A DNA stretch of 64,000 bases from Vampirovibrio sp. (GCA_024998755.1 JACEUU010000003.1:1417601-1481600), one strand, 5' to 3'; numbered from the stretch's first letter, positions 36,676-38,077 are shown. Numbers and translations are program-made. Notes: generated from the sequence alone by a model not told the origin.

Positions 36676-36870
36676 GGTGAATCAAAATCCTTACTAATTA
36701 ATACAACAGTGAAAGGGGTAACGACAAATAATACTATCTGTCATTAAACCAAAAACGCATCTTAAAAAAAACCCCTTGGGCTCTAAATTTATTACTTCAG
36801 CGTTTAAATAGCGATTTCTCTCATCGATTGTCGTTTTCGTCTTTCGCTGGTTGGTTTGTCAGTATCTGTG

Positions 36871-37794
36871 TCAAGCAGTGGCTTTTAAGTGATCTCGAAC
36901 CATCGCATTCAAAATAGTCAACAACTTCCGAATACAAGCCACCAACGCCACTTTAGCAGGCTTTCCCACACCCCGCAATCGCTCATAAAACACCTTCAAC
37001 CGCTCATCATGCCGCACCGAACTCAACACCGCCATATACAACAACCGACGGACACCAGATCTCCCACCCCAACAACACCGCTTACCCCGCCAAGCACCAC
37101 TATCCCGATTCTTCGGAGCAACGCCCACCAGCGAGGCTATTTTCCCCCTACCCAAACAACCTAATTCAGGCAAACAAGCCAACAGCACCACACTGGTTTT
37201 AAACCCAACACCAGCAACCGTCTCCAAGCATTCTTGCTTGCTTTGAATCGATGGGTCTAACGCAATTCTTCGTTTCCATTCCACTACAATGGCTGAAAGC
37301 CGTTGTTTTAAGGCTTCACACTGGGCGGCTAAATCGGCTATAACGAAGGGGTCTGTGGCTTGGTGGGCTTGCGTTTTGAGCGTTGCTAGGGCTTGCGTTG
37401 TTTGTTCTTGGTGCCGAGCCAGTTCAACCAAGGCTTGGGGTGGTAGGAAGTCGGTTTCTTGGGGTTGGATTACTCGAGCGTAGTGGGCTAGCACTTTTGC
37501 GTCTAGCTTGTCGGTTTTGGCTAGGATGCCGCAGGCTTTGGCGAAGTCTCTTACTTGTCTTGGGTTTGCTTTGACAACGGGTAGTTGGGCTACTTTGAGT
37601 GCTAGGTAGAGTGGTTTTTCCTAGCCACCTGTGGCTTCTAGGGTTATTTTGGTGGGGGCGAATTCTCTCAGTGCCAAAACCAATTGTTCAATGTCCGTTT
37701 CTTGGTTTTGGCACTGAGAGAATTGGGGGCTTTGGTTGTTGAGATAGCAGATGTCTAGGGTAGATTTTGAGACATCTATGCCGACGGTTTTCAT
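36871..37794 (-). pseudogene. IS110 recombinase with a premature stop (TAC to TAG at 37621-37623)
   Basis: Reads ...LEATGG* where copy 1 reads LEATVGYE. The downstream frame is otherwise intact. Confidence 0.88.
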
Positions 37795-37820
37795 GGTAGG
37801 ATTTCCTTTGGTAGAAAAAT

Positions 37821-37965
37821 AGGGATTTGGATTTAGCCTTATGGTACGAACGTTAGAGTTCGGGCATCTGTTCAAATGGCATCCCTTGTAAAACGGTGCT
37901 AGTGATCTTGCTGACAATCGGTTGTTTGGAGCCGAGGGGAATGGACGATCGACTAGCACCGTTTT
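37821..37965 (-). ncRNA. Predicted IS110 bridge RNA, copy 2
   Basis: Reverse complement of 5379-5523, with identical guide segments. Confidence 0.82.
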
Positions 37966-38077
37966 ATTCTACCAACACATAAGGGGGTTGCCAAACCGCA
38001 CCCCCCTGACAAACTAACCAGCAAAAAACGGTAGCGACAATCGATAAGAGACACGCTATTCAATCTATGAATGGGAA

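Follow-up and report, generated by a model that had tools for sequence, protein, structure and literature searches.

How does an IS110-family element come to lie between two inverted copies of the same half of its host repeat? Two elements in the genome of Vampirovibrio sp. (GCA_024998755.1, JACEUU010000003.1) raise this question. Both lie in a window of 64,000 nucleotides, which is the whole stretch of DNA analysed here and corresponds to C1:1417601-1481600 of a 2.49-Mb genome in three contigs. As the first-pass annotation of this window had described, the head arm of the repeat stands inverted on both sides of both IS110 copies, without the ~170-bp tail (Table 1). On the LE side of each copy lies a GC-rich hairpin. 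For comparison, exact-protein look-ups and searches by cluster led to contigs of related strains (97-98% identical).

Table 1. Coordinates of the two IS110 copies, their repeat flanks and the neighbouring genes, in window positions
Feature	Position	Strand	Remarks
SU10-type portal gene	3487..5283	+	PF23899, E=1e-37; left outer flank of copy 1
Head arm H_1a	5299..5335	+	without outer terminal repeat; extra T (GGTTTTGTC)
Hairpin beside copy-1 LE	5336..5361	+	IS-canonical orientation, reversed relative to H_1a
CT cores of copy 1	5361-5362 and 6482-6483
IS110 copy 1	5362..6481	+	LE with predicted bridge RNA, about 5362-5550; transposase from ATG 5551
CT + inverted head arm H_1b	6482..6556 (end approximate)	-	full terminal repeat; canonical right flank
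BlaI/Penicillinase_R-type repressor gene	6683..7159	-	PF03965; right outer flank of copy 1
LL-diaminopimelate aminotransferase gene	35476..36675	-	PF00155 and source-record names; RE-side outer flank of copy 2
Head arm H_2R + terminal repeat	36801..36862	+	ends GTCAG; canonical right flank of copy 2
IS110 copy 2	36863..37982	-	TAC>TAG nonsense at conserved Tyr, stop 37621-37623
Hairpin (37983-38005) + head arm H_2L + terminal repeat	37983..38075 (end approximate)	-	left flank of copy 2
Secretin gene	38078..40306	-	PF00263 and PF03958; LE-side outer flank of copy 2

Unoccupied copies of the host repeat in the window run over ~280 bp in the order head arm, hairpin and ~170-bp tail. Being short, non-coding, multicopy and bounded by terminal inverted repeats (termini ..AAATAGCGT and ACGCTATTT..), the repeat is a MITE, whose head-motif 11-mer occurs 26 times in the window against 0.57 expected. 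None of the window's unoccupied copies is head-hairpin-head; all are head-hairpin-tail or internally deleted. A BLAST-based census of the genome returned 59 intact head-tail elements, 15 solo heads and 17 solo tails without an insertion, along with two head-IS-head and one tail-IS-tail chimeras. Neither this census nor regular-expression scans of the 2.49-Mb genome detected an empty head/head or an empty tail/tail MITE, and a pattern search extended to four relatives of the source genome likewise returned no empty palindromic form. The contrast between unoccupied repeats and IS hosts, first noticed in the window, therefore holds genome-wide. Since three of the 13 IS copies have chimeric flanks as against none of the 59 intact empty MITEs (Fisher's exact p=0.0048), the chimeras are tied to the presence of the IS.

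The MITE subfamilies are mosaics around the hairpin, with the same core joined to different tails or heads. The hairpin and about 15-25 nt of head arm are also common to other repeat families with different outer parts (for example, ..CCGAAGCGATTA..). This shared module forms the right flank of the IS copies at C1:483622, C1:1028846, C2:9404 and C2:539770 and recurs at empty sites at C1:1289203, C1:107209 and C2:327726; with several MITE families sharing the segment, the IS target module is a mosaic building block. IS630-like transposase ends adjoin two of the IS110 copies.

The inserted element is 1120 bp long and present in 13 copies genome-wide. Window positions 5385-6473 match the two domains that characterise the IS110 family, the DEDD (RuvC-like) N-terminal domain (PF01548, E=1.9e-21) and the IS116/IS110/IS902 C-terminal domain (PF02371, E=1.6e-14; both Pfam). 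The LE is predicted to fold into a stable two-loop RNA (-58.3 kcal/mol, z -6.9). By inspection, with the strand rule for guide reading taken from Durrant et al. (PMC11208160), the apparent bridge-RNA guides are CAUUCCCCU and GAUUGUCAG, for the target ..CAGTCCC CT GACAAAC... In the target loop, CAUUCCCCU would correspond to the top strand of the left target plus CT, with UUGUCAG pairing with CTGACAA; in the donor loop, ACAGAUGC would correspond to the RE end plus C, with CAUAAG pairing with CTTATG, across CT. These features suggest a structured 5' non-coding RNA with loops matching target and donor across the CT core. An Rfam search of the window gave no matches.

Junctions are the same in all 13 copies (left ..CCCC/T.., right ..GATG/CT..), and ancestral empty sites overlap by CT. 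Insertion is site-specific: the core dinucleotide stands at each junction, and the element lacks terminal inverted repeats. Read in the direction of the IS, most copies have on their left the reverse-complemented tail and then the hairpin, ending ..CAGTCCCC, and on their right CT GACAAACC.., after which comes the reverse-complemented head.

Ten of the copies are at least 99.5% identical and three, which have a 24-bp deletion, are 97.4-97.5% identical; the about 10 variable sites are too few to place crossovers within the IS. Nine of the 13 share a TAC>TAG change at the conserved Tyr of an EATGGY motif (alignment column 362), and in three of these nine the 24-bp deletion, which is in-frame, is shared as well. 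Copy 1 has a Gly>Val change within the same motif. Only three copies appear intact from their sequence, leaving three to four potential suppliers of the enzyme; broken-gene copies have therefore multiplied or been spread, presumably with enzyme supplied in trans.

Palindromic flanks had been described for both IS110 hosts; this holds for the two copies in the window and does not extend to the other 11 in the genome, which are not head/head and mostly occupy ordinary tail-bearing MITEs at the same CT. The first-pass annotation had alternatively suggested that IS110 prefers a pre-existing short palindromic subfamily, as the window alone, with both occupied sites palindromic, might lead one to think. 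Ten of the 13 copies, however, lie in non-palindromic hosts, the five genomes searched contain no empty palindrome for the element to have entered, and the ancestral alleles of both sites, described below, are ordinary tail-bearing MITEs. These observations refute such a preference, and we give it practically no credence.

Where the palindromes come from is instead suggested by the target. Canonical empty targets number 19 as exact 13-mers and 20 with one mismatch, and an IS is present in roughly 25-30% of good targets. The stem of the hairpin being palindromic, the tail side of the MITE repeats the left half-site of the target. The core at this position is CC in 34 of 38 MITEs and CT, followed by GACAC, in the other 4/38, and a tail-side site with CT and GACAC is two mismatches worse than the canonical target. 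Both faces of the hairpin resemble the target, as the annotation had it, and the site-2 hairpin belongs to the CT subtype.

A bridge-RNA-guided IS110 would ordinarily land at the CT between MITE hairpin and head arm, and a tail-side CT core would allow it to land there as well, in the opposite orientation relative to the MITE. Such a wrong-face copy would have head and hairpin as its left flank and the tail as its right flank, whereas a canonical copy has tail and hairpin on the left and the head on the right; recombination between the two would yield head-IS-head and tail-IS-tail. Head/head and tail/tail flanks are exactly the products expected of such a swap. The tail/tail counterpart is the copy at C2:282211..281092: its left flank is a full reverse-complemented tail plus hairpin, and its right flank begins CT GACACGC.. 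and runs forward into the tail. None of the 13 copies is an unrecombined wrong-face copy (head-hairpin-IS-tail), and we therefore infer this intermediate from its two halves.

An IS in a sister species (L020; G001:C101, about 3500-4700) is 88% identical to the present element and can be compared with window 5362-5550. Its target-loop guides differ (CACCCCCU / GCUGUUAAG), and it is inserted at ..CACCCC CT TAACACCC.., which is the other head subfamily of the same MITE (the GTGTTAAGGGGG type). This looks like natural reprogramming of the guide between two subfamilies of one repeat.

The two halves of the wrong-face insertion can be traced at site 2. The secretin beside copy 2 has a 96% identical protein on a scaffold of KRAE22-1, adjacent to an empty MITE; a metagenome scan with the secretin found only 28-30% relatives. 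In L042 and L043, 98.4% identical to the source genome, the order is secretin, intact empty MITE, short tail and a 213-aa gene, and the MITE consists of the H_2L arm and hairpin, then ...CCCC CT GACACGC... into the tail. Positions 7101-9251 of L042 correspond to C1:1457734-1455582, ending at the LE of copy 2, and positions 9250-10341 to C2:281091-279998, which begins where the tail/tail copy has its RE; the 2-nt CT is shared by both alignments. It follows that the left flank of copy 2 and the right flank of the tail/tail copy are one ancestral MITE, cut at its tail-side CT. On the LE side of copy 2, the loop of the hairpin reads head-to-tail (GGTTTGG), and H_2L retains on its other face an intact empty canonical target, with CT at about 38006-38007 (match at C1:1455602). 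The observation that the switch in copy 2 lies at the IS boundary can accordingly be sharpened: the ancestral empty site breaks exactly at the CT beside the IS.

The other flank of copy 2 leads to a second repeat. In L035 and L036, an intact empty canonical target precedes the aminotransferase gene. Positions 1-1730 of L035 correspond to C2:270531-268802, ending at the LE of the C2:268801 copy, and positions 1731-3133 to C1:1454462-1453060, starting at the RE of copy 2, so that copy 2, in its right flank, and the C2:268801 copy, in its left flank, each carry one part of a second ancestral MITE. The RE junction of copy 2 is also present in the independent scaffolds L024-L026. In related strains, the upstream neighbour of the aminotransferase gene is a NUDIX gene region that is on C2 in the source genome. 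Between the two partner copies on C2, which have the same orientation (minus strand), lies a single-copy segment of 12.3 kb (C2:268802-281091). The L042 and L035 maps together give the ancestral order as aminotransferase side, 12.3 kb, secretin side.

Comparison of these contigs shows relocation, the flanks of copy 2 evidently deriving from two different ancestral MITEs. The maps indicate that one IS entered the aminotransferase-side MITE canonically and another the secretin-side MITE on its tail face, placing two copies in direct orientation 12.3 kb apart. The 12.3 kb was then lost by recombination between them, so that a single IS remained with a head on either side, and the segment is now found on C2 between two IS copies, one of them the tail/tail chimera.

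The resulting IS110-12.3 kb-IS110 unit, with its copies in direct orientation, occupies G000 C2:267682-282211 (L021, L045), and its cargo holds seven open frames of at least 155 aa, including one of 1205 aa (1202 aa from ATG) and the NUDIX region. Two directly oriented copies thus bracket a segment whose ancestral place is elsewhere, as in a composite unit. The outer flanks of this unit do not add up to one target. Judged by gene order in a relative (141-aa, 290-aa, Ham1 and SelO genes), what now flanks the C2:268801 copy on the right formerly adjoined the left flank of the C2:9404 copy. Since the right outer flank has this other partner, transposition of the composite IS-12.3 kb-IS in one step into a single target was considered and ruled out. 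Flank swapping is general, with at least five of the 13 copies being rearrangement junctions.

At site 1, relatives likewise preserve the unrearranged repeats. The BlaI-like protein has an exact match on six metagenome contigs. L030 (97.1% identical over 7.6 kb and collinear with window 14141-6538) and L032 (98.4%) have, beside the BlaI-like gene, an identical H_1b arm followed by uninterrupted hairpin and tail; the tail is full-length in L030 and short in L032, and beyond it lies DNA absent from the source genome. In a more distant relative, L044, the portal stop is followed by the TIR-less arm with the same extra T, then by hairpin and tail, which makes the H_1a arm ancestral at the portal end. 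A 41-kb contig of a relative joins the two sides: it carries FUR, response regulator, histidine kinase, portal and a 232-aa gene, continues with capsid, SU10 adaptor, 517-aa and 411-aa genes, and then reaches BlaI. The window keeps the same outer genes and none of the five inner phage-like genes, and a family search of the source genome found no member of the capsid or SU10 adaptor families.

Because relatives hold the ancestral MITEs and the five inner genes, site 1 is, as to its outcome, a deletion of ~6 kb between two convergent MITEs, with both tails gone and the IS at the junction. The portal gene is what remains of a six-gene phage-like block, which may be a prophage stub or a gene-transfer-agent-like unit. 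The hairpin beside copy 1 differs at 4-5 positions from that of the H_1b MITE in L030 and L032, which places the break on the H_1b side at the IS, and the left junction of copy 1 also occurs in three independent scaffolds, which differ by a SNP in the loop.

A single deletion between a wrong-face and a canonical copy misfits site 1, where hairpin and H_1a point in opposite directions and the far side of the hairpin reads GG (CC core) in place of AG (CT). More steps or a different route must have been involved here: two canonical copies could have undergone inversion before a second deletion, or the recombinase could have carried out a half-match event; both would fit. In L030 (7623-7765), a ~140-bp palindromic mini-element (ends GACCTCTTGCATGACTCGATA..) is nested in the terminal repeat of the site-1 MITE; it is absent at that place in the source genome, and the same end sequence occurs in G001 (L019).

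Gene order compared with relatives hence differs from the ancestral arrangement at both sites, and the combination that was to speak against rearrangement, many empty palindromes together with conserved synteny, was encountered in neither part. The expectation that the two points mark breakpoints was right inasmuch as both are true rearrangement junctions; what took place was deletion and relocation rather than inversion between the two copies in the window. The 31 kb separating them show no signal in GC skew, which is noisy genome-wide. In G001, the only genome of the same genus (250 contigs), contigs end at site 1, and site 2 is a breakpoint, as are other places, which leaves the comparison unspecific; no neighbours from either arrangement recur in other genera of the family. 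Further synteny breaks are seen in the window at about 45.1 kb (C1:1462720) and about 60.44 kb. In KRAE22-1 the DNA upstream of window 45.1 kb corresponds to C2:293287-295353, and in G001 the secretin end abuts a homolog of window 60.4-64.6 kb, inverted.

The pairing of left and right flanks across each IS comes from one assembly, and mispairing across identical IS copies would allow a true genome with only head-IS-tail and tail-IS-head; independent short-read scaffolds end 5-42 bp inside the IS and leave the two sides unphased. Against such an artefact, the 2.49 Mb fall into only three contigs despite more than 90 MITE and 13 IS copies, and copy-specific variants are kept, including the 24-bp deletion in three copies; contiguity and variants together imply reads longer than the IS. 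Moreover, the assembly lacks the 6-kb block of site 1 altogether, the odd left flank of copy 1 recurs in three other assemblies, and wrong-face insertion would stand even if the flanks had been mispaired. We consider an artefact improbable to a high degree.

We judge it likely that the head/head palindromes are junction scars of IS110-mediated rearrangements that followed insertion on both faces of the hairpin. Their numbers are unequal, two head/head against one tail/tail, so that one reciprocal product has either disappeared or never arisen; a deletion would yield no such product. An order of events in which MITEs recombined or template-switched across the hairpin independently of the IS, which later inserted into palindromes offering two targets, would be in keeping with the mosaic MITE subfamilies, and at about 25-30% target occupancy two occupied palindromes out of two are not in themselves improbable. 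The tail/tail element, however, lacks a canonical target and yet holds the IS exactly at CT, and each half of site 2 is joined to an IS end, which largely refutes this order there. In addition, the copy-1 hairpin is not the ancestral one of the H_1b MITE, putting the break at the IS, and the Fisher test given above ties chimeras to the element. Late insertion into ready-made palindromes therefore seems very unlikely to us.

The first-pass annotation had favoured recombination of two empty repeats by the bridge recombinase, with the IS serving merely as the source of the enzyme. Both hairpin faces do resemble the target, and the IS-free far-side junction of copy 1 could be a product of such a reaction. 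Yet the junction maps refute it for site 2, where both breaks fall at IS ends and other IS copies carry the missing halves, so that the exchange partners were IS copies, one of them inserted on the wrong face; no IS-free chimera exists among the 59 intact empty MITEs and 32 solo head or tail pieces; and target-target synapsis is not described in the cited bridge-recombinase literature. We hold this origin to be highly improbable.

Insertion on both faces followed by exchange between IS copies leaves the question of the agent of exchange. Homologous recombination between IS copies is the classical source of deletion, inversion and relocation. Since the copies are 1.1 kb long and mostly at least 99.5% identical, RecA-type recombination between them is our default. 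As in classical cases, the copies exchange flanks with one another, and stretches between direct copies disappear or change place; unlike there, where a strictly oriented target normally hides the swaps, the two-faced target exposes them here as head/head and tail/tail.

It is possible, if rather doubtful, that the bridge recombinase made the exchanges instead of host recombination, by LE x RE recombination or by a half-match at the tail-side pseudo-core, which predicts excision of the IS plus cargo and hybrid target junctions. Every resolvable break is indeed exactly at the CT core or an IS end, and on the far side of copy 1 the sequence is hairpin-CC-GACAAAACC, in which the left half of the pseudo-target meets the canonical right half with no IS between them; this resembles a hybrid site made by the recombinase. 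For IS621 and relatives there are reports of half-match recombination and of partial or expanded circles, and movement of ISPpu10-cargo-ISPpu10 units has been reported as well. On the other hand, homologous recombination inside 1.1-kb copies with about 10 differing sites yields identical flank pairings, nine of the 13 copies have the nonsense codon so that only three to four could supply the enzyme, and the assembly contains neither RE-LE circle junctions nor tandem IS copies. Somewhat more tentatively still, a two-faced hairpin and the bridge recombinase (LE x RE, with a half-match at the pseudo-core) might together excise and relocate kilobase segments.

The element resembles IS621 of E. coli with its bridge RNA (Durrant et al. 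2024, PMC11208160; Hiraizumi et al. 2024, PMC11208158) in its DEDD and Tnp domains, in a predicted 5' non-coding RNA with two loops, having left guides for the bottom strand and right guides for the top strand that both take in the CT core, and in its insertion into an extragenic palindromic repeat. Unlike that of IS621, the host repeat is a MITE of ~280 bp with a further site on the tail side of its hairpin, and natural insertions would have occurred on both faces, hence the chimeric flanks. ISPpu9 and IS621 in REP sequences (PMC12288879) provide the same picture of a dispersed palindromic repeat as landing pad; chimeric repeat flanks, a feature of the present case, are not mentioned for them in the outline of that article.

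Closest to site 2 is the IS-cargo-IS relocation by ISPpu10 in Pseudomonas putida (bioRxiv 10.64898/2026.03.19.712850), where likewise two direct IS110 copies in palindromic repeats bracket a displaced cargo and a GC-rich stem-loop adjoins the target. Here, by contrast, the 12.3-kb cargo was lost from the donor site and not amplified, the outer flanks are not one target, which indicates more than one exchange, and one of the two founding insertions would have been on the wrong face of the hairpin. Off-target and half-match insertion (bioRxiv 10.64898/2026.08.31.748434) and IS110-associated inversions with expanded loci (bioRxiv 10.64898/2026.08.14.744561) offer a further parallel, involving insertion or excision at sites that match part of the guides, and inversions and translocations occur there. 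In contrast to half-match cases, the tail-side site here is, by inspection, a near-full match (CT core, 5/7 and 5/7 flanking positions).

The locus is a new example of IS-mediated deletion and relocation, with the twist that the hairpin target appears usable from both sides. It offers a traceable natural case of an RNA-guided IS110 reshaping a small genome, in which sister strains supplied three ancestral empty sites and the breaks could be placed at the CT core. For this organism, the deletion at site 1 explains why a lone phage portal gene is found in the source genome. Should the exchanges be the work of a recombinase acting on a two-faced target, the genome would be a natural record of bridge-recombinase-driven deletion and relocation, including the IS-free hybrid junction (hairpin-CC-head) beside copy 1. 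For bridge recombinases in general, off-target prediction at hairpin sites should cover both faces, and the structure of the MITE can serve as a marker of past IS-mediated rearrangements, since head/head and tail/tail flanks reveal exchanges that would otherwise be invisible.
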